Below, in pieces: positions 7,265 to 37,454 of a stretch of 41,024 nucleotides of DNA. The stretch lies in the UHGV virus genome UHGV-0070243; one strand, given 5' to 3'. The stretch comes from a virus. How positions within the stretch are numbered: position 1 is the first letter of the stretch; the number at the start of each line of letters is the position of its first letter. The notes under the pieces are model-generated. The model ran no database searches and was not told where the DNA came from. It saw only the letters and a list, made by a program, of their open reading frames with translations. The translations under genes and the position numbers were made by a program.

Positions 7265-7279
7265 TTACCTTTCAGGTAA
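7265..7279. promoter_or_regulatory. operator-like palindrome TTACCtttcaGGTAA
   Basis: perfect inverted repeat TTACC-N5-GGTAA; same 16-mer ATTACCTTTCAGGTAA recurs at 27563-27578. Confidence 0.6.
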
Positions 7280-7318
7280 TTTGCAAAACGTGCTGGATAG
7301 CAAACAAATTATTTGCTA

Positions 7319-7334
7319 CTGTATAAATATACAG
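7319..7334. promoter_or_regulatory. LexA (SOS) box CTGTATAAATATACAG
   Basis: matches CTGT-N8-ACAG with AT-rich centre (TACTGTATAAATATACAGTT); 8 nt upstream of ATG at 7342. Confidence 0.7.
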
Positions 7335-7341
7335 TTATTGC

Positions 7342-7614
7342 ATGGAGAAGATTAAGATGCAGCAGTATCACTATCCACTGGAAGACGGATTTACCGAAAG
7401 GATTCACACGCCGGGAGGCGTCAGGTCACTGGTGGAGGGATCGCACTTGATGAAATTACTCCGGGATCTCGATAAGGATGGATTTAATGTCGATGGCCCA
7501 CTTGCCGAACTGACTGCACTGATTAACTACGTCACCAGCTCGCAGATGTCTATGCAGGATCTGCAAACACATCTCGACTATTGTGCCGAACAATTACGAA
7601 AACAAACCAGATAA
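7342..7614 (+). CDS. stand-alone antirepressor C-terminal (ANT/KilA-C-like) domain protein (90 aa), probably SOS-inducible
   Basis: aligns by eye with the shared C-terminal domain of both antirepressors (PL..G...P.GV..L.E.S.LM.LL..L..DG..V.G..AELT...Y....D.QTH..Y); LexA box immediately upstream. Confidence 0.55.
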   Translation: MEKIKMQQYHYPLEDGFTERIHTPGGVRSLVEGSHLMKLLRDLDKDGFNVDGPLAELTALINYVTSSQMSMQDLQTHLDYCAEQLRKQTR

Positions 7615-7645
7615 GGTTTGAAATTACCAAATGGAGTGCTTATAT

Positions 7646-7660
7646 TTACCTTTGCGGTAA
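7646..7660. promoter_or_regulatory. operator-like palindrome TTACCtttgcGGTAA (extended ATTTACC...GGTAAAT)
   Basis: perfect TTACC-N5-GGTAA in the structured leader upstream of the Bro-N antirepressor. Confidence 0.6.
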
Positions 7661-7926
7661 ATTTACATCGCACTCCTCTTGTGCCATAGTAATCGGGCAC
7701 TGGCAAAATCCAGTGCCGGGATTGGCGTCCCGGGTTACTACAGAGGCACATATGCCGCATAAGCGGTTTTTTTATGTGTAAAGCGCACCTATTCTATGGT
7801 GGGCTGTGTGGGGGCACCGAAAGGTGCGCCGGGTCCTTTGTAGCCGGTTACGCCAACCCTGCACAGTTCACCACCAACCGATTGGCGTCGGTAGTGGTGA
7901 TTAACCTAACTACAAAGGTGATCACT

Positions 7927-8613
7927 ATGACTGCTAACGTAACCCCATCTGTTTTTCATTTTGAATCAGAAGCAACCATTCGAGCCATTGTTATTGATGG
8001 AAATCCTTGGTTTGTTGCCAAAGACGTTATTAAAGCTCTTCAACTGACAAACCCCACTATGTCAATAAAATCTCTTGATGATGATGAAAGGGCTAAATTT
8101 AACTTAGGCCGTCAAGGCGAAACCAATATTATCAACGAGTCAGGCCTCTACACACTGATCCTCCGCTGCCGCGACGCAGTGACACCAGGCACTATCCCCT
8201 ACCGCTTTCGTAAATGGGTTACAGGTGAGGTTCTTCCTCAGATCCGCCGCACCGGAAGTTACATTAAAAACTCGCTCCCGCAGGAAGAACGCATAAAGAT
8301 GGTTGCCGACCAGGTAGCCAACGCCACAGCATCAGCAGTGATGCAGGCAATGAAGATAGAGAACAAAACCTACAGTGCCCCGCTGAAGCCCGGCTACCGC
8401 AGTCTGATTCATTCGCCGTCGGGTGTTCTCGGCCTGACGGAGCACTCACTGCTGATGAATCTGCTGAACCAGTTACAGGAAGACGGGCATGACGTATCGG
8501 GCGCGGCGGCGGAGCTGACCACCATGTTCTGCTACATCGTCGGTGTGAGCAAATGCCTGCGTGATATCCAGACGCACGCGGAGTACATCAACGACAAGGC
8601 TGGGTTCTTCTGA
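7927..8613 (+). CDS. antirepressor, Bro-N domain + ANT/KilA-C C-terminal domain (228 aa)
   Basis: Bro-N signature FHFESEATIRAIVIDGNPWFVAKDVIKAL...ESGLYTLILRCRDA...RFRKWVTGEVLPQIRRTGSY; RBS AAGGTGA; ORF 7774..8613 trimmed to ATG 7927. Confidence 0.8.
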   Translation: MTANVTPSVFHFESEATIRAIVIDGNPWFVAKDVIKALQLTNPTMSIKSLDDDERAKFNLGRQGETNIINESGLYTLILRCRDAVTPGTIPYRFRKWVTGEVLPQIRRTGSYIKNSLPQEERIKMVADQVANATASAVMQAMKIENKTYSAPLKPGYRSLIHSPSGVLGLTEHSLLMNLLNQLQEDGHDVSGAAAELTTMFCYIVGVSKCLRDIQTHAEYINDKAGFF

Positions 8614-8720: not shown

Positions 8721-8930
8721 ATGGGATTTTGGTTCGCTCGTACAAAAACGAGGGATAATGCACCCAGCCCTCAGGCAAAAAATGCAGAAGTTCCGGCGTC
8801 AGCGCAGGTTAACAAGCGTGGTGGAGTATATATCTCATCACAGCAAATTTCTGAGCTTCCTGAGGTTAAGGAGATGCGTCGTCTCGCTGCTGCAATTGTT
8901 AAACAGGATCTTGCCACTGTAAGGAAATAG
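8721..8930 (+). CDS. hypothetical small soluble protein (69 aa), first gene of two-gene cargo operon
   Basis: strong SD GAGGAGGAG 4 nt before ATG; stop TAG overlaps GTG start of next gene by 1 nt; preferred over alternative-frame ORF 8698..8922. Confidence 0.5.
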   Translation: MGFWFARTKTRDNAPSPQAKNAEVPASAQVNKRGGVYISSQQISELPEVKEMRRLAAAIVKQDLATVRK

Positions 8931-9796
8931 TGTTGTTAGCTCTTCTAATTATCCCCATTCTGGTTAGTGGTTATATTATGATAACCGCTAACCAGTATCA
9001 TTATTTCCGTTTATACCGACATGAAGGCCAGCTTCTTTATATGAAAGTAGCTGCATTAGGTACATATTGCCTTGTTGCATCAGTAATAATTGCAGCCGCT
9101 ATAAAATATAAATGGCCTGATTTTCACCTAGTTCACGATATGGTGGAAACTTTTAATGTAACATCAAAACCAGAAACAGATAGAATTTACATGTGGCTGC
9201 TTCTTCTCTCAGCCACATCCATTTGCTTCTCTTTGTGTTATGTGTCTGTTGTGTGGGTGAAAGATTTTCTTCTTGGTTGTTTTTATAAACGTGATATTTA
9301 CGAGCAAAAAACAGAGGCAATGAAGGCCAGAGTACTGCGAAAAACTTACTCGCAAGGTTCTTTAGACTTACTATTGCTTGATGCTATTGAATCGGATCCT
9401 AAACGACCAATGTTGATTACTTTATCATCAAACAAAGTGTATGTTGGAATAATAAATGGTTCTGGTGAACCAACGGAAAATCAGGGTCCGCATCAGCACA
9501 TATCTTTTGTTCCTTTAATGTCAGGATACAGGAACAAAGAAAACTTATCTGTCACATTCACTAATGCTTATCCAGGAGAAATACAGGTCAAGCGGACTGC
9601 AGCAATAAGAGGAATTAGCAGAAAGAAAGTGCCAGGACTTGAGATCATGGTGTCTATTGACGAAATAAGTTATATATCATGGTTTGATTTTGAAGTATAT
9701 AAAGCAACAAATAACAAAGTAGAATCCAGGGGGCACGTTATTCGTGTTACCAAAAATGGAAGAAATATATATCAAAGAAATAGCAAAAAAGAATAG
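8930..9796 (+). CDS. hypothetical membrane protein (288 aa): three or four N-terminal TM helices plus about 160-aa soluble C-terminal domain
   Basis: GTG start with RBS AAGGAAA; visibly AT-rich codon usage unlike flanking phage genes; followed by terminator. Confidence 0.6.
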   Translation: MLLALLIIPILVSGYIMITANQYHYFRLYRHEGQLLYMKVAALGTYCLVASVIIAAAIKYKWPDFHLVHDMVETFNVTSKPETDRIYMWLLLLSATSICFSLCYVSVVWVKDFLLGCFYKRDIYEQKTEAMKARVLRKTYSQGSLDLLLLDAIESDPKRPMLITLSSNKVYVGIINGSGEPTENQGPHQHISFVPLMSGYRNKENLSVTFTNAYPGEIQVKRTAAIRGISRKKVPGLEIMVSIDEISYISWFDFEVYKATNNKVESRGHVIRVTKNGRNIYQRNSKKE

Positions 9797-10098: not shown

Positions 10099-10356
10099 TG
10101 CACATCCCTGTGCCTCCGTTCTGTCAGAAGAACCCTGCCTTGTCATTGATGTACTCTGCGTGAGTCTGGATATCACGCAGGCATTTGCTCACACCAACGA
10201 TGTAGCAGAACATGGTGGTCAGCTCCGCCGCCGCGCCCGATACGTCATGCCCGTCGTCCTGCAACTGATTCAGCAGATTCATCAGCAATGAGTTCTCCGT
10301 CAGGCCGAGAACACCAGACGGCGAGTGAATCAGGCTGCGGTAGCCGGGCTTCAGCG
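10099..10356 (-). repeat. right arm of about 258-bp inverted repeat (partner of 8380..8638)
   Basis: reverse complement of 8380..8638 matches with a handful of substitutions. Confidence 0.8.
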
Positions 10357-11068
10357 GATAACCATAACATTTTGTCTGTGTTTTAATTGCCTCACGAAGC
10401 GCATCTAACATCTTGACTGCCACTTCATCATTCTCTGATGCAGATCCAGCAGGGAGATACTCCCCTTCAAGCGGAACCCGAGCAACAAGAGACAACGCTT
10501 CGGCGAATTGATCTTCATCAATTTCTTTGTACGAACAGCCAAAATGAGATTTCAGTGACGACCACATGGTGATCATCGCCTTAGCCTGTTTTTCTTTTGG
10601 CAGAGACTGACCGCGACTCATGACGAGTTGTTTAATGGCTTCCTGCTGTTCAGTGGTTATTTTACCCGGCAACGCCTTTTTAGCTTTGCGTGGGTTAACC
10701 ACATGGCCTTTAGTCCAGTACTCGTAGAGCACATCGTCACACTCTTCCTGATACTGGATTACCTTGTCGCGGATTTCAGGACGGACTTTGTTAGGGCTGA
10801 TGGTTTGCAACCAGCCAGCAAGTTTGCGAAGTGCCAAACAAATAATCTCACGGCGCTGTTCATCCCCAGGAAGCTGCATTGTGATTTTCACAATGCAGGT
10901 TTTAAACCGCTGCTTCATTTTCGTAAACTGTGAAGCCCAATCCATACCCATTCCCTCAACGATAGGCTTCATTGGTGTGTACGGTTCGCCGTTGTGATTG
11001 ACAACATAAAGTTCTACGCCGTGGAATGGCACGTTGATAGTAGATACCGCTGTTGCTATACTCGTCAT
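10124..11068 (-). CDS. ant: antirepressor Ant-like (314 aa): Ant N-terminal domain + shared ANT/KilA-C C-terminal domain
   Basis: N-terminus VPFHGVELYVVNHNGEPYTPMKPIVEGMGMDW and KVRPEIRDKVIQYQEECDDVLYEYW recalled as P22 Ant-like; downstream of arc-like gene as in P22 immI. Confidence 0.7.
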   Translation of the reverse strand: MTSIATAVSTINVPFHGVELYVVNHNGEPYTPMKPIVEGMGMDWASQFTKMKQRFKTCIVKITMQLPGDEQRREIICLALRKLAGWLQTISPNKVRPEIRDKVIQYQEECDDVLYEYWTKGHVVNPRKAKKALPGKITTEQQEAIKQLVMSRGQSLPKEKQAKAMITMWSSLKSHFGCSYKEIDEDQFAEALSLVARVPLEGEYLPAGSASENDEVAVKMLDALREAIKTQTKCYGYPLKPGYRSLIHSPSGVLGLTENSLLMNLLNQLQDDGHDVSGAAAELTTMFCYIVGVSKCLRDIQTHAEYINDKAGFF

Positions 11069-11140
11069 GTCGTTAATTCCTATACGTAGTTTTACGATAC
11101 TGAAGCCCTGACGGTCTGGCCACCGTTGGGCTTCGCTGTT

Positions 11141-11308
11141 TTATGCCACGCTATTCTTCTCACCAGTGAGTCCATACACTTTCCTCAGCTGATAGATAAT
11201 CTCTGTATTGAACTTTCGGCATTCTTTTTCGCCATTTCTTTCAATAGCTAACTTCACATCGTCCGGAAAACGAACTCGTCGTTGACACATCTCTTTTGCT
11301 TTTTGCAT
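11141..11308 (-). CDS. arc: Arc-like ribbon-helix-helix repressor (55 aa)
   Basis: MQKAKEMCQRRVRFPDDVKLAIERNGEKECRKFNTEIIYQLRKV resembles P22 Arc (beta-strand then NSEIYQR helix); RBS AAGGAG 9 nt upstream; ORF 11141..11344 trimmed. Confidence 0.65.
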   Translation of the reverse strand: MQKAKEMCQRRVRFPDDVKLAIERNGEKECRKFNTEIIYQLRKVYGLTGEKNSVA

Positions 11309-11428
11309 TTCATATCTCCTTAGCCCCACCGTGGGGCAAAACAATTGTCACACCGTGCGTCATTGATGTCAAGCACACGGTGAGGCATACTTCAATCATT
11401 GCAAGTAACTCAATATTTGGTGAAGAAC

Positions 11429-11860
11429 ATGAGCAGAGAAGATCCACAACTAAGGATCAGACTTCCCGTTGAAGTAAAAGAAAAAATAGAAATTTCTGCA
11501 AAAGCCAATAAGCGATCAATGAACGCTGAAATAGTACAACGTCTTGACACCAGCTTTCTGAAAGATATTCATGAAGATGACGTAATTTCTGCTTATGAAG
11601 CAAAAATTATTGCAAACAATGCACGGCATGAAATATCAAATATTATTTTCAAAAGAACCTTTAATGAAATTAATAAGAAAATAACACTTGGACATACAAG
11701 TTTTTATATAAACCTTAATGACCTTGAACTGGAATCACTTGCAGATAATGATTACCAGATCATCTTTGAAAAAACATTTAATAAGCTCAATGAACTAGGT
11801 TACATCATCTGTGAAAACTCATGGGATGCAGATGGTTTTGGAATTGAAATACCTGAATAG
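11429..11860 (+). CDS. mnt: Mnt-like ribbon-helix-helix repressor with about 60-aa C-terminal extension (143 aa)
   Basis: MSREDPQLRIRLPVEVKEKIEISAKANKRSMNAEIVQRL resembles P22 Mnt N-terminus (DDPHFNFRMPMEV...ANGRSMNSELLQIV); divergent from arc; AT-rich. Confidence 0.65.
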   Translation: MSREDPQLRIRLPVEVKEKIEISAKANKRSMNAEIVQRLDTSFLKDIHEDDVISAYEAKIIANNARHEISNIIFKRTFNEINKKITLGHTSFYINLNDLELESLADNDYQIIFEKTFNKLNELGYIICENSWDADGFGIEIPE

Positions 11861-23091: not shown

Positions 23092-23529
23092 TTAACCAGT
23101 TACTTTTGAGCGGATCGGATACGGCGTATTGGCATCAACATCAAGACTGATACCAGCAGTGAATTCGCCAGCCGTTAGTGGGCCAGTTGCGACGGAGTAG
23201 TTAACACGCAGATATCGCTGAACACCGGCAGGCACCTTTGCAGAAACAACTCGTTTACCTGCTGTCAGGGCGGTCTTTGCCAGTGCGCCACTATCATAAA
23301 TAGTGGTCCATGAGCTGTTATTTTCACTCGTCTGCAACTGGATGTTTACAGTTGCATCACCGCTTGCCGCGGCGGCTGTGTTAACCAGCGCCCAAAACTC
23401 AAGCGGGTAACCAACGCCGATATCACGACGTTTTCCGTCAATTGGACCGAGATCGATTACGTCAGTAGAAGCCGCGGTATCAGTTACCGCCTGTGCTTCG
23501 GAGAACATCAACAGTTTGTCGGTGATCAT
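23092..23529 (-). CDS. hypothetical virion protein (145 aa), possibly capsid-associated
   Basis: immediately downstream of the capsid gene; beta-rich composition. Confidence 0.45.
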   Translation of the reverse strand: MITDKLLMFSEAQAVTDTAASTDVIDLGPIDGKRRDIGVGYPLEFWALVNTAAAASGDATVNIQLQTSENNSSWTTIYDSGALAKTALTAGKRVVSAKVPAGVQRYLRVNYSVATGPLTAGEFTAGISLDVDANTPYPIRSKVTG

Positions 23530-23580
23530 CTTCTTTCTCCATTAGTGGGTCTGTTACGACCCACAGGTTAATAACAGGCG

Positions 23581-24573
23581 TTACACCACGCGGGCTTCTG
23601 TTTCCAGAAGCGCATCAGTTTCACGGATTGGTACACCACGGAATGAAGTCCACCACTCGCCTTCTGTCTCTTTTACGCTGATAGCCAGAGATGTTTTCTC
23701 CAGAGACTGCAGATCAAGAGCCTGGCCTACAGTGCGGTTCATGTAGAACACCGGGCGGCCCATGCCACGGTTTGGAATGCGATGTAGTGCTTTAACCATC
23801 AACTTCGCAATATTTGCGGCAGAGGATGGTTCTGAAAGATTGCTGACATCGATGTTTGCAATGCGAACAACATAACGCCAGTCACGCAGAGCAAGTCCGT
23901 TATCCCATTTGTAATGGGTGCGATAGCCTTCGTACTTGCCGCCATTAGCATCTTCCAGTGTCACCTGGCCTTTATCTTCCATCTGGATGCCAGCCTTCTG
24001 CCCTTTCGGGAAGATGCCATGCACGGTGTTTTCGCCCCACACCACTAACCAGATTGAGGTGTTATCTGTACCCGTGCCACCAGCATCAATGATGTTCTGA
24101 GCATTACCCGCAGACAGGCTGGAATAGCGGGAGGACAGTCCCATAAACTGCTGAGGGTTAACGCTGGAATCACCATAAAACAGCGTCTGCGCCATCTGCT
24201 GATTCATCGCTTCAATAAATGCGCGGTCTTCAGAAAGGCGGAATTCGGCGGTATTGCCGTTCAGATCAGCCAGTGACTTATCGACTTCCGCATAGGTTTC
24301 CAGCATGCCAACGGAATCGGTTACCTGCACTGTGGTTGATTTGCTTGGCTGTACGCCATAGTTCAGCAAACGCCAGGTAGCTGAAGGTAAACCAGAACGA
24401 ATGGTGGTTCGGTGTCCGGTAGGAAGGTTCCCTTCGACAAAAGGCATATCCTGAAGGATCGGGTTAGTTTGACCGAGAAGCTCGATAATCTTATCGACTT
24501 TCCCGTTTGGATCGACGCGCTTACCCCAGTCAGCCAGCGTTAGCGCAGTTAAGCCTTTAACAGCCATTGTCAT
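23581..24573 (-). CDS. major capsid protein (330 aa)
   Basis: position after scaffold gene, size typical of T7-like major capsid; followed by a stem-loop at 23545-23564. Confidence 0.7.
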   Translation of the reverse strand: MTMAVKGLTALTLADWGKRVDPNGKVDKIIELLGQTNPILQDMPFVEGNLPTGHRTTIRSGLPSATWRLLNYGVQPSKSTTVQVTDSVGMLETYAEVDKSLADLNGNTAEFRLSEDRAFIEAMNQQMAQTLFYGDSSVNPQQFMGLSSRYSSLSAGNAQNIIDAGGTGTDNTSIWLVVWGENTVHGIFPKGQKAGIQMEDKGQVTLEDANGGKYEGYRTHYKWDNGLALRDWRYVVRIANIDVSNLSEPSSAANIAKLMVKALHRIPNRGMGRPVFYMNRTVGQALDLQSLEKTSLAISVKETEGEWWTSFRGVPIRETDALLETEARVV

Positions 24574-27563: not shown

Positions 27564-27578
27564 TTACCTTTCAGGTAA
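27564..27578. promoter_or_regulatory. operator-like palindrome TTACCtttcaGGTAA next to a TTGACA -35-like hexamer (27542-27547)
   Basis: perfect site; identical 16-mer to the 7264-7279 site. Confidence 0.6.
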
Positions 27579-27900: not shown

Positions 27901-27977
27901 GTGGCATTAGCTCAGTTGGACAGAGCAACCGCCTTCTAAGCGGTTGGTCGCAGGTTCGAATACTGCATGCCACGCCA
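27901..27977 (+). tRNA. tRNA-Arg (anticodon UCU), 77 nt, with a G:A mismatch in the T-stem
   Basis: acceptor GTGGCAT/ATGCCAC, discriminator G, CCA encoded; D-arm GCTC/GAGC; anticodon stem ACCGC/GCGGT with loop CTTCTAA; T-arm GCAGG-TTCGAAT-ACTGC; overall very similar to E. coli argU (memory). Confidence 0.8.
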
Positions 27978-28020
27978 GAATCACGCCTAAGGACCGTGAT
28001 GCCAGAAGTTCCAGGTGCTT

Positions 28021-28062
28021 GGCGGTGATGGTTTCCCTTGAAGGACTATCACCGCCCTTTTT
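28021..28062 (+). terminator. hairpin GGCGGTGAT...ATCACCGCC followed by CTTTTT, downstream of tRNA
   Basis: 9-bp stem with long loop and T-run. Confidence 0.5.
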
Positions 28063-28140
28063 ACAGCAGGACGCCATTGCGATGACTTCATGCTGTAAAC
28101 CAGTACAGCCACGGAAGGCATAACTCATTGCTTCCAGTTC

Positions 28141-28164
28141 GCCCGGTTCGTCCGGGCATTTTTT
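28141..28164 (+). terminator. rho-independent terminator GCCCGG-ttcgt-CCGGGC + T6
   Basis: 6-bp GC stem followed by ATTTTTT. Confidence 0.65.
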
Positions 28165-28180
28165 GCCTGATGACCACAAA

Positions 28181-30521: not shown

Positions 30522-31114
30522 TGATTACCATCCTGACGTTCTTTGAGTCGCTTCCTGGCTGCTGCTATGCGATCAGCAATTGTCACATTCACATTAACAT
30601 CCAGACGTTCTTTGAACGCGTTGACATCAACATGCTTACCAATCAGCTCAAGGTTCTTCACCTTGTCAGGCCATTTAATTTTTTTGAGGATTGTCTCTAT
30701 CGAATCCTCGTTCATGTTCATGATGGTCGATGACAGATCAAAGCCACTAAGCGTAGTGCGCCAGATTTTCGGCCACTCACGGATTGGTTTAAGGCTCCCA
30801 TCGTCGTTGAGGATGTCGATCACGTCCATCTGGTCGATCTCCACCAGGCGCATGAGAACGTAATCAGCACTGACGCGCATTCGTTTGTTGCGCTCCTCCA
30901 TCAACTCGGCAATCCGTTTTTGAATGCGTTCATCGCGCATCATGACACTAGCTTTAACTGCCGCTGTATTTGGGGAGAATCCTGCGTTAATCGCTGCCTG
31001 AGTCTGGTTTTCAGGCGTTTTGATGTATGACTGGCAATAAGCCTCCTGCATTGCTGTTAGTGGCTTAAATTGCGTTGATTTGCGTTTATAGGTTTTAGGT
31101 TCAGCAGGCATCAT
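30518..31114 (-). CDS. terminase small subunit (about 198 aa)
   Basis: position immediately upstream of and overlapping terL; basic helical protein; ORF 30518..31192 trimmed because a terminator hairpin lies inside its 5' extension. Confidence 0.6.
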   Translation of the reverse strand: MMPAEPKTYKRKSTQFKPLTAMQEAYCQSYIKTPENQTQAAINAGFSPNTAAVKASVMMRDERIQKRIAELMEERNKRMRVSADYVLMRLVEIDQMDVIDILNDDGSLKPIREWPKIWRTTLSGFDLSSTIMNMNEDSIETILKKIKWPDKVKNLELIGKHVDVNAFKERLDVNVNVTIADRIAAARKRLKERQDGNQ

Positions 31115-31154
31115 AACCACCGTGGTAATAGTTACCGTTGTGGTAATAGTACCA

Positions 31155-31232: not shown

Positions 31233-31499
31233 TCACACTATTAATTTCGTTTCATGCCAGCCTTTAGTCACCCAGCATTGCGAGTCACCATTACACGGGC
31301 ATGAATTAACTGGAACTCTCTCGCCGCACTTACCGCAACATTTTCTGCTGATCGATTTTATACGCCCGCGCACGCGTGCATCATCCTGGCGGATCAGTAA
31401 CGCTATATACTCACCGAAGTCTGGCACTGGATATACACCTTCCGTACACTGGCGGCAGTCACAATAGAGATGCATTGTGTAACTTGCGGCAATAGCCAT
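31233..31499 (-). CDS. Cys-rich small protein (88 aa), probable zinc-binding; function unknown
   Basis: CDC..C and CCGKC...CPC clusters; last early-operon gene before the terminator and terS. Confidence 0.45.
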   Translation of the reverse strand: MAIAASYTMHLYCDCRQCTEGVYPVPDFGEYIALLIRQDDARVRGRIKSISRKCCGKCGERVPVNSCPCNGDSQCWVTKGWHETKLIV

Positions 31500-34279: not shown

Positions 34280-34294
34280 TTACCTCTAAGGTAA
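34280..34294. promoter_or_regulatory. operator-like palindrome TTACCtctaaGGTAA
   Basis: perfect site 4 nt upstream of the 34276 start codon. Confidence 0.6.
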
Positions 34295-34341
34295 TTAAAA
34301 ACCACATAAGACACGAAATCAATAGAGCTTAGAATATTTTG

Positions 34342-34356
34342 TTACCTTATAGGTAA
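34342..34356. promoter_or_regulatory. operator-like palindrome TTACCttataGGTAA
   Basis: perfect site, 62 bp from the previous one in the same intergenic region. Confidence 0.6.
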
Positions 34357-36350: not shown

Positions 36351-36581
36351 TCATGAGTAGAAGAAGTATGCCAGTTCTGCTTTTGAGCGCAGCCATTGTC
36401 TTGTTTTACAGGCTTTAAAAAGCCCATTCATCAATACTTTACCTGGCATTTTTCGCTTACCTGTTAAGTGAGTCTGGATATAGTGACTCGTCGTTCCGGC
36501 TTCCTGTGCGAAGGCTTCACGCTCATCCGGAGTAAGTGCAAGCCAGTGCTTTTTGAAATCGAAATGTCCGTTATCGCTCAT
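36351..36581 (-). CDS. Cro-like HTH regulator (76 aa)
   Basis: HTH-like segment AFAQEAGTTSHYIQTHLTGKRKMP; first gene transcribed leftward from the divergent operator region. Confidence 0.55.
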   Translation of the reverse strand: MSDNGHFDFKKHWLALTPDEREAFAQEAGTTSHYIQTHLTGKRKMPGKVLMNGLFKACKTRQWLRSKAELAYFFYS

Positions 36582-36617: not shown

Positions 36618-36680
36618 TCACCCATAAGGTAACAAAAATCAAGGATAGTTACCTATGAGGTGCATTTACCTGTTGGGTAA
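36618..36680. promoter_or_regulatory. OR-like tripartite operator between divergent cro-like and repressor genes
   Basis: three sites: TcACCcataaGGTAA (36618-36632), TTACCtatgaGGTgc (36649-36663), TTACCtgttgGGTAA (36666-36680). Confidence 0.65.
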
Positions 36681-36735: not shown

Positions 36736-37320
36736 ATGAAAAGTATCCAGGACGTCCGCAGGCAAAATCTCAACGACTTGATCGACCGTGAATTCAATGG
36801 TGTTCAGACGCGGATGGCAGAAAAACTTGGAACTCAGGCAAATCTGGTAAACCGCTGGGCTCTTGGCAAGAAGGTTATCGGCGACCAGGTTGCGCGAAAA
36901 ATTGAAGCTGCCGCCAATAAACCCCGTAACTGGCTTGATATCGATCGCTCGCTTTCTCAGGAAGGTTTTCAGCCTGTCGGCCCAAGCGACATTGGTCAGC
37001 TGGCGGCTCACAACCTGGAACGCTGGATGAGCGAAAGCCGCGACCTTTCAACACAGGGAAAACTTCACCGCGCATCCGGCGTCGCCCAGGTGACAATCAG
37101 CCGCCTGTTAAACAATGAGGTCAGCGTTTCCATTTCCACCCTGGAGAATGTTGCATCCGCATTCGGGCGTCACGGCTATGAATTACTGATTCACCCGCAC
37201 GACCCTGCGACTATCAACTATGACCGCTCGCGCTACGCATTGTTACCCGAAACAGAGAAGGCAAAGATCGAAAGTTACATTGAATTTGTCATCAGCCAGA
37301 ACGAAAAAAACAAACAATAA
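36736..37320 (+). CDS. tandem-HTH (two XRE-type domains) repressor-like protein (194 aa), no S24 peptidase domain
   Basis: two HTH segments (GVQTRMAEKLGTQANLVNRWALGKK and HRASGVAQVTISRLLNNEV); cI-like position between OR-like and OL-like operator clusters; own terminator. Confidence 0.6.
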   Translation: MKSIQDVRRQNLNDLIDREFNGVQTRMAEKLGTQANLVNRWALGKKVIGDQVARKIEAAANKPRNWLDIDRSLSQEGFQPVGPSDIGQLAAHNLERWMSESRDLSTQGKLHRASGVAQVTISRLLNNEVSVSISTLENVASAFGRHGYELLIHPHDPATINYDRSRYALLPETEKAKIESYIEFVISQNEKNKQ

Positions 37321-37340: not shown

Positions 37341-37367
37341 AAGCCGCCTCATGGCGGCTTTTTTATT
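37341..37367 (+). terminator. rho-independent terminator after repressor gene
   Basis: AAGCCGCC-tcat-GGCGGCTT + TTTTATT. Confidence 0.75.
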
Positions 37368-37377
37368 GCCAGCAAGA

Positions 37378-37454
37378 TTACCTTATGGGTAATTTTTTTA
37401 ACTCATATCTATTGACATCAAACCAGATACGCATAATCATTACCTCAACGGTAA
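37378..37454. promoter_or_regulatory. OL-like operator pair flanking a PL-like promoter
   Basis: TTACCttatgGGTAA (37378-37392), TTGACA at 37412-37417, TTACCtcaacGGTAA (37440-37454), extra half-site GGTAAC at 37463-37468. Confidence 0.6.

Follow-up and report, generated by a model that had tools for sequence, protein, structure and literature searches.

A tandem helix-turn-helix repressor of the SPC32H Rep family in a phiV10-like prophage, very probably released by an SOS-induced antirepressor

The gene in the cI position of the 41,024-nt viral stretch analysed here (UHGV virus genome UHGV-0070243, below called the window) very probably encodes a non-cleavable repressor of an epsilon15/phiV10-type prophage, which would act as an SPC32H-like tetramer, read DNA with the first of its two helix-turn-helix (HTH) domains and be released by the antirepressor Ant upon SOS induction. 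As a whole, the window represents an E. coli prophage of the phiV10/TL-2011b type and belongs to the epsilon15-like podoviruses, genus Uetakevirus. Its repressor, Rep, is 99.5% identical to gp40 of phiV10 and to ORF21 of phage ZX5 (vB_EcoP_ZX5), and its identity across the repressors of phiV10, ZX5 and TL-2011b is 99.0-99.5%, so that there is essentially no difference between these proteins. Identity to Rep is 75-78% for the repressors of the Enterobacter phages Tyrion and BUCT554 and falls to 42-45% for Klebsiella phages, epsilon15 and the Salmonella phage SPC32H. In addition, among 5426 complete E. coli genomes, 537 (about 10%) carry rep and the operators on either side of it at an identity of at least 95%. 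The gene had originally been read as a candidate immunity repressor in the cI position, devoid of an autocleavage domain and part of a suggested antirepressor-based circuit with dispersed operators and a LexA box, and this reading is now upheld by the homology to SPC32H Rep and by the effect of overexpressing ZX5 ORF21. The features of the window are collected in Table 1.

Table 1. Positions of rep, its operators and the antirepressor genes in the 41,024-nt window
Feature	Position	Strand	Remarks
Rep operator at ant promoter	7265..7279	.	position conserved in SPC32H and phiV10
LexA box TACTGTATAAATATACAGTT	7317..7336	.	between ant promoter and ant ribosome-binding site
ant, small antirepressor, SPC32H Ant orthologue	7357..7614	+	also a start at 7342; the second ATG is the conserved start
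Rep operator upstream of isrK/C4-like RNAs	7646..7660	.	
isrK-like sRNA	7697-7773	+	Rfam 74.7 bits, above gathering score
C4-type antisense RNA	7792-7878	+	Rfam 79.5 bits, gathering score 45
Bro-N antirepressor with Ant-like C-terminal domain	7927..8613	+	Bro-N E 8e-20; phrog_450 E 1e-35
Operator near antirepressor genes	8680		
P22_AR_N antirepressor with Ant-like C-terminal domain	10124..11068	-	P22_AR_N E 4e-44; phrog_450 E 2.5e-35
sar antisense RNA, at 5' end of P22_AR_N antirepressor gene	11070-11137	+	Rfam 45.2 bits, gathering score 43
Possible small arc-like ORF	11141-11308	-	weak Arc match, E 0.11
Mnt/Arc-like gene, divergent	11399-11860	+	153-aa protein; Arc domain E 1.2e-14
Operator upstream of small gene preceding portal gene	27564..27578	.	
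Two adjacent operators	31114..31146	.	31114, 1 mismatch; 31132, 0 mismatches
Second operator pair	34280..34356	.	sites 34280 and 34342, 62 bp apart
cro-like gene, divergent from rep	36351..36581	-	phrog_35 'transcriptional repressor' E 5.6e-13; equivalent to phiV10 p41
Left operator cluster, between rep and cro-like gene	36618..36680	.	
Left operator 1	36618-36632		1 mismatch
Left operator 2	36649-36663		2 mismatches
Left operator 3	36666-36680		perfect
rep, SPC32H-type repressor gene	36736..37320	+	ATG start, 194 aa
Rep residues 1-72, N-terminal HTH (HTH1)	36736..36951	+	probable operator reader
Rep residues 88-150, second HTH_3-fold domain (HTH2)	36997..37185	+	counterpart of SPC32H Rep middle domain
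Rep residues 151-194, predicted C-terminal tetramerisation and Ant-binding domain	37186..37317	+	CAD/TetDloop equivalent; role by homology
Intrinsic terminator after rep	37341..37370	+	hairpin 37341-37360, 8-bp stem, 6 GC pairs, then T-run
Right operator pair	37378-37392 and 37440-37454	.	both perfect; 62 bp apart

With phmmer, residues 1-190 of Rep were aligned to residues 2-197 of SPC32H Rep (PDB 5D50_A) at an E value of 4e-42 and 42% identity, and Rep also matched PDB 5D4Z, which holds residues 92-198 of SPC32H Rep (E 4e-20). The same two structures, 5D50 and 5D4Z, were the top matches when the structural model of Rep was searched with Foldseek (probability 1.00). The identity to SPC32H Rep is unevenly spread: HTH1 is the most conserved part (53%), the C-terminal domain follows with 48%, and the middle domain, at 33%, is the least conserved structured part. 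By its sequence, Rep is a full-length member of the SPC32H Rep family and can be named Rep (SPC32H type). In RefSeq, such rep genes carry merely the name 'helix-turn-helix domain-containing protein'. [quoted passage not shown]

A later paper (PMC9986798) divides SPC32H Rep into N-terminal DNA-binding, middle dimerisation, and C-terminal tetramerisation and Ant-binding domains, names the N-terminal domain as the only one that binds DNA, and likens the C-terminal one to a DNA-looping tetramerisation domain. According to other papers that cite the structure, it is the tetramer that binds palindromic DNA sites, while the dimer binds only weakly; the pair of DNA-binding domains on one palindromic site comes from different dimers; and the tetramer of Ant, by attaching to two Rep dimers, breaks up that of Rep. 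For Rep of the window, we infer the oligomeric state, the DNA-contacting domain and the binding of Ant by transfer from SPC32H Rep, at an identity of 42% (33% for the middle domain).

The domain scan confirmed the original view of a tandem HTH protein that is devoid of an autocleavage domain. Against Pfam, HTH_3 was found on two stretches of Rep, with the best match at residues 106-147 (E 1.2e-9), and residues 21-61 matched a YdaS/Cro-like HTH. The N-terminal 77 residues scanned alone stayed below threshold (HTH_3 E 0.012, YdaS_toxin E 3.7e-4), while residues 83-194 scanned alone reached HTH_3 above the gathering score (E 1.1e-5); residues 1-76 matched PHROG repressor families with E values of 1e-10 to 1e-11. 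The better HTH_3 match of the second domain is probably why it was deemed DNA-binding in the original prediction as well as by the authors of the ZX5 study, who took the second HTH as the DNA-binding one. No Peptidase_S24 domain was found in Rep in a domain scan at E values up to 1. An autocleaving repressor would carry this domain, with its Ser/Lys dyad, at the C terminus; the C-terminal half of Rep consists instead of HTH_3 and a short tetramerisation domain. The AlphaFold model of Rep, which was built on a 31-sequence alignment and has a mean pLDDT of 77, contains two helical bundles (residues 4-59 and 85-151) and a disordered linker at 74-82, and the second bundle is followed by a C-terminal helix of lower confidence. 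The two bundles differ in net charge, which is +5 for HTH1 and 0 for HTH2. The recognition helix of HTH1, NLVNRW (N36-L37-V38-N39-R40-W41), is invariant in the six phages with a common operator, and in the corresponding 'recognition' helix of HTH2, VTISRL, T120 and R123 are invariant among related Reps.

The dispersed operators of the original prediction proved to be far more frequent than chance would allow: 10 perfect TTACC-N5-GGTAA sites were observed in the window (0.04 expected), and 14 when up to one mismatch was allowed (0.83 expected). These operators are perfect inverted repeats of 15 bp whose half-site centres lie 10 bp apart, and among the ten window sites the palindrome is often extended to A-TTACC...GGTAA-T. 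Six related phages have one and the same operator consensus, and all of them also possess a pair spaced by 62-63 bp downstream of rep. The three-site layout to the left of rep recurs in SPC32H, and the RefSeq record of epsilon15 marks these sites as repressor binding sites.

The form of the operators bears on how Rep would read DNA. The original prediction had proposed a single-chain pseudo-dimeric repressor, in which one Rep chain would occupy each operator with HTH1 and HTH2 on separate half-sites and no homodimer would form. Such a chain could be accommodated by the flexible linker of about 25 residues between the two HTH-fold domains, and HTH2 is by sequence a bona fide HTH_3 domain that, together with the C-terminal module, constitutes the sole HTH of the proteins P0027 and P0035, where it probably binds DNA. 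However, the TTACC and GGTAA half-sites are perfect inverted repeats and therefore call for two identical reading heads, whereas HTH1 and HTH2 are dissimilar, down to their recognition helices. A BLASTP comparison of HTH1 with HTH2 plus the C-terminal part returned no similarity at E values up to 100, and a recent internal duplication is thus ruled out. Moreover, the operator is invariant in six phages, but HTH2 has kept only 33% identity to SPC32H Rep, so that HTH1 alone is conserved together with the operator; HTH2 is uncharged overall, in contrast to HTH1; and no second, asymmetric motif that could serve as a target of HTH2 was found beside the ten operators, where the palindrome alone is conserved. 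The SPC32H equivalent of HTH2 is, in the papers cited above, a dimerisation domain of a repressor that binds as a tetramer. The assignment of one half-site to each HTH, which these comparisons address indirectly, is therefore not supported, and we consider a pseudo-dimeric reader very improbable. The preferred reading is an SPC32H-like tetramer in which HTH1 would read both half-sites.

The operators lie at several promoters. To the left of rep, a leftward promoter-like site at 36635-36607, which is aimed at the cro-like gene, overlaps the first left operator. To the right, the early-left promoter-like sequence TTGACA-17-AATCAT at 37412-37440 lies between the two right operators and is directed into recE/recT-like genes. 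Operator clusters on both sides of rep, and a terminator of its own, had been part of the original prediction, and both were found. Further away, the promoter-like sequence TTGATT-17-TTTAAT lies inside the second operator pair, upstream of a DUF1064 gene; the two adjacent operators at 31114 and 31132 follow a terminator and immediately precede the likely start of terS; and the operator at 7646-7660 starts at the last base of the second hexamer of a promoter-like site at 7618-7646.

The spacing of the pairs raises the possibility that HTH2 of a tetrameric Rep also contacts DNA, for example non-specifically between the paired sites, and thereby wraps or loops the promoter. In favour of this, a promoter is enclosed at two places in the window by an operator pair with a spacing of 62-63 bp, or about six turns of the helix, and all six relatives have kept the pair that follows rep. 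Furthermore, T120 and R123 do not vary in the HTH2 helix, and PMC9986798 compares the C-terminal domain of SPC32H Rep with a tetramerisation domain that loops DNA. In contrast, HTH2 is electrically neutral, no conservation other than that of the promoter elements was found in the region between the sites of the 62-bp-spaced pairs, and this secondary literature attributes DNA binding to the N-terminal domain alone. We therefore regard a direct contact of HTH2 with DNA as unlikely, and a tetramer that reads DNA through HTH1 remains the reading that we prefer.

The activity of the repressor has been measured with its ZX5 counterpart. In overexpression assays, ORF21 of ZX5 left no free phage at all, with a drop in mRNA of 99.99% for endolysin and 99.97% for holin, and overexpression of the Bro-N antirepressor ORF4 brought the titre of the prophage down from 10^9 to 10^6 PFU/mL. 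Expression of the gene in a naive host had been named as a check on the original prediction; the overexpression of the 99.5%-identical ORF21, which blocked lytic growth although not in a formal immunity assay, largely amounts to this check. These data also bear on whether the role of immunity repressor truly belongs to another gene, for example the cro-like gene, the Mnt/Arc-like gene or a regulator at 31233-31499, and the rep ORF is an accessory. The window does encode several more small DNA-binding proteins of this kind, but overexpression of ORF21 alone was sufficient to abolish free phage, SPC32H Rep is described as the repressor of phage SPC32H and the target of Ant in a citing paper, and the operators that flank rep recur at early and late promoters. 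A different repressor hence appears hardly credible, and we retain rep as the repressor gene.

The antirepressor-based induction circuit that had been suggested together with a LexA box was likewise recovered, in the form of an Ant orthologue behind a conserved operator and LexA box. The Ant protein of the window is 86% identical to SPC32H Ant and matches PDB 5D50_E with an E value of 4e-47. Upstream of its gene, the Rep operator at 7265-7279, a -35-like TTGCAA, the LexA box, the ribosome-binding site and the ATG follow each other, and this order is the same in the window, phiV10 and SPC32H. The box TACTGTATAAATATACAGTT, whose position is conserved in SPC32H, is the one place in the window that fits the 20-mer LexA consensus with up to 3 mismatches (0.00 expected). 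Two other matches to CTGT-N8-ACAG, at 23551 and 28093, were dismissed as LexA boxes since they have more than 3 mismatches to the 20-mer consensus; the one at 28093 lies inside the ORF 27907-28179, and the one at 23551 is flanked by the ORFs 23092-23529 and 23581-24573. In SPC32H, Rep reportedly remains uncleaved in the SOS response, ant is reported to be repressed by LexA, and phage SPC32N is reported to be constitutively induced through a point mutation of this box (Kim and Ryu, J Virol 2013; Kim and colleagues, PNAS 2016). In the deposited sequence of SPC32N, the LexA box that precedes ant carries a C-to-A change in its CAG arm relative to SPC32H, which agrees with such a mutation.

By homology with SPC32H, the circuit would probably work as follows. 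The middle HTH-fold domains would pair into Rep dimers, and the C-terminal domain would join two dimers into a tetramer. The N-terminal HTH alone would read DNA, with pairs of identical HTH1 domains on the 15-bp TTACC-N5-GGTAA palindromes, and these operators overlap or bracket the divergent early promoters and further early/replication units, as well as the promoters of the antirepressors and the point where the packaging/structural genes begin. Because S24 is absent, RecA would be unable to trigger self-cleavage of Rep. In the SOS response, cleavage of LexA would instead expose the ant promoter, and the small Ant protein would bind the C-terminal domain of Rep, split the tetramer into dimers and free Rep from DNA. 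A non-cleavable repressor in an antirepressor circuit is supported by our analysis, but it had been published before for Uetakevirus and, in effect, for the protein studied here. The notion of two HTH domains is not new either, as the phiV10 record annotates its putative repressor with 'two helix-turn-helix motifs' and as similar to the putative epsilon15 repressor.

The three antirepressor-domain proteins of the original prediction are all present, namely Ant and two larger proteins. The record of SPC32H, in contrast, has one annotated ant gene, while the prophage in the window has two further antirepressors with an Ant domain. The C-terminal domains of both larger antirepressors are 37-38% identical to Ant (37% for the Bro-N protein), with 30 invariant positions among four aligned sequences. 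The Bro-N antirepressor is 81.8% identical to ORF4 of ZX5, and the C4 RNA lies 49 nt upstream of its start; such a C4 antisense RNA just upstream of an antirepressor gene resembles the immI-type control of ant by c4 in P1/P7. The P22_AR_N antirepressor lies in a stretch, 10124-11860, that combines the components of a P22 immI-like cassette, that is, a P22_AR_N antirepressor, sar and Arc/Mnt-like regulators; the likeness to P22 immI (mnt/arc-ant/sar) extends over the elements at 11070..11860, the arc-like ORF among them being weakly supported. The first 224 residues of this antirepressor are 72-82% identical to Ant of CUS-3 and Stx phages, only three records reach a query coverage of 80% or more, and a full-length match in the phage collection was found, among the best matches listed, in TL-2011b only (94.3%). 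With a lambdoid Ant body and a C-terminal domain that is matched over the full length only there among the matches listed, the protein has the look of a domain swap. The gene table annotated for phiV10 contains no P22-type antirepressor gene.

Presumably, all three antirepressors would bind one and the same domain of Rep and be controlled in three ways, apparently by LexA and a Rep operator for Ant, by a Rep operator and the isrK/C4-like RNAs for the Bro-N fusion, and by Mnt/Arc/sar for the P22_AR_N fusion. For this arrangement of three antirepressors with a shared module, alone among the parts of the locus, we found no earlier description. A broader picture, in which Rep is a hub for three inputs, the P22-type protein arose by a domain swap, the C-terminal ~85 residues set the specificity and Rep is itself a fusion, is put forward tentatively, and we think it somewhat more doubtful than probable.

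With regard to the last point, a search of 1.8 billion representative proteins with Rep as the query retrieved 12 proteins at an E value of 1e-30 or better, and about a dozen near-full-length relatives (~187-200 aa) headed the results. Many other proteins matched residues 1-80 only, and in four of the five that were examined (P0049, P0076, P0081 and P0095) the HTH was followed by Peptidase_S24. Many others matched residues 85-190 only, sometimes as the sole HTH of a protein of ~160 aa (P0027 and P0035). Since HTH1 and the module of HTH2 plus C-terminal domain occur separately in other proteins, the comparison suggests that Rep joins a cI-type DNA-binding domain to a formerly independent HTH-plus-tetramerisation module whose HTH may have been re-used for dimerisation and may still make some contact with DNA.

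These parts can be set against other known systems. Repressors of the lambda cI, P22 C2 and LexA type share the position and role of Rep, and homologues of HTH1 are fused to Peptidase_S24; Rep differs in that it is without S24 and would be inactivated by a binding protein rather than by cleavage, and it would form its tetramer by means of an HTH-fold domain together with a tetramerisation domain that is p53-like. The Gifsy and Fels-2 prophages and coliphage 186 with its Tum protein are alike in having a non-cleavable repressor and a small LexA-repressed antirepressor, and Kim and Ryu are said to have noted in 2013 that the proteins are structurally distinct from the antirepressors of Gifsy, Fels-2 and Tum. 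In Rco of pLS20 (PMC9986798), a short strand-helix tetramerisation domain (TetDloop) comes after the HTH, and Rco is inactivated by a protein partner, as would be the case for Rep. However, Rep has an extra N-terminal HTH that would have taken over operator reading, and there is no relationship in sequence to the pLS20 antirepressor Rap.

For the repressor itself, these findings add little, because the gene, its HTH motifs, its activity, the structure of the family and the antirepressor mechanism have all been published. Their practical value lies in annotation, as the dispersed TTACC-N5-GGTAA sites together with the LexA box define the Rep regulon. If the three controls hold, the locus would offer a compact system in which to ask how several induction signals are combined by a prophage, and how domain swapping exchanges repressor specificity between antirepressors.

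The Bro-N antirepressor gene lies directly 3' of matches to the isrK-like and C4 RNA families of Rfam (window 7697-7878, plus strand). These matches, located immediately upstream of the gene, suggest that the antirepressor is subject to RNA-based control, for which the isrK locus of Gifsy-1 and the immI region of P1 offer parallels. We also found that this epsilon15-like prophage houses a P22 immI-like cassette at 10124-11860. In the P22_AR_N antirepressor of this cassette, the C-terminal ~90 residues are replaced by an Ant-like domain, which is common to TL-2011b and the other two antirepressors in the window, an apparent domain swap at the C terminus. The cassette, together with the 288-aa ORF and the small ORF preceding it, appears to be without a counterpart in the annotated gene table of phiV10. 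In addition, a tRNA-Arg gene was observed at a position equivalent to that of a tRNA-Arg in SPC32H.

Features of the antirepressor region and the tRNA gene (window coordinates)
Feature	Position	Strand	Remarks
isrK-like Hfq-binding sRNA	7697-7773	+	Rfam, 74.7 bits, above gathering score
C4 antisense RNA, P1/P7-type	7792-7878	+	Rfam, 79.5 bits, above gathering score
288-aa ORF, function unknown	8930-9796	+	phrog_3630; between Bro-N and P22_AR_N antirepressor genes
Small ORF, signal-peptide-like N terminus	about 9877/9891-10050	+	Also between Bro-N and P22_AR_N antirepressor genes; read by eye, outside ORF calls
P22_AR_N antirepressor	10124-11068	-	immI-like cassette
sar antisense RNA	11070-11137	+	immI-like cassette
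Possible small arc-like ORF	11141-11308	-	immI-like cassette
Mnt/Arc-like gene, divergent	11399-11860	+	immI-like cassette
tRNA-Arg (anticodon TCT)	27901-27977	+	Among small genes upstream of portal gene

The operator pairs at 37378/37440 and 34280/34342 bracket promoter-like sequences, and the sites of each pair are separated by 62-63 bp from centre to centre, approximately six helical turns. Downstream of rep, the immunity repressor gene, this spacing was kept in all six related phages (L001-L006), and it may reflect the holding of both sites by one tetramer.

The search of representative proteins with Rep revealed many proteins (among P0022-P0070) that matched only residues 85-190, which comprise the HTH_3 and C-terminal domains. 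These proteins are 100-200 aa in length, although a few are longer; in some, the matching HTH is the only one present. Such proteins may constitute a family of their own, uncharacterised and made up of small tetrameric repressors, on which Ant-like proteins could act as well.
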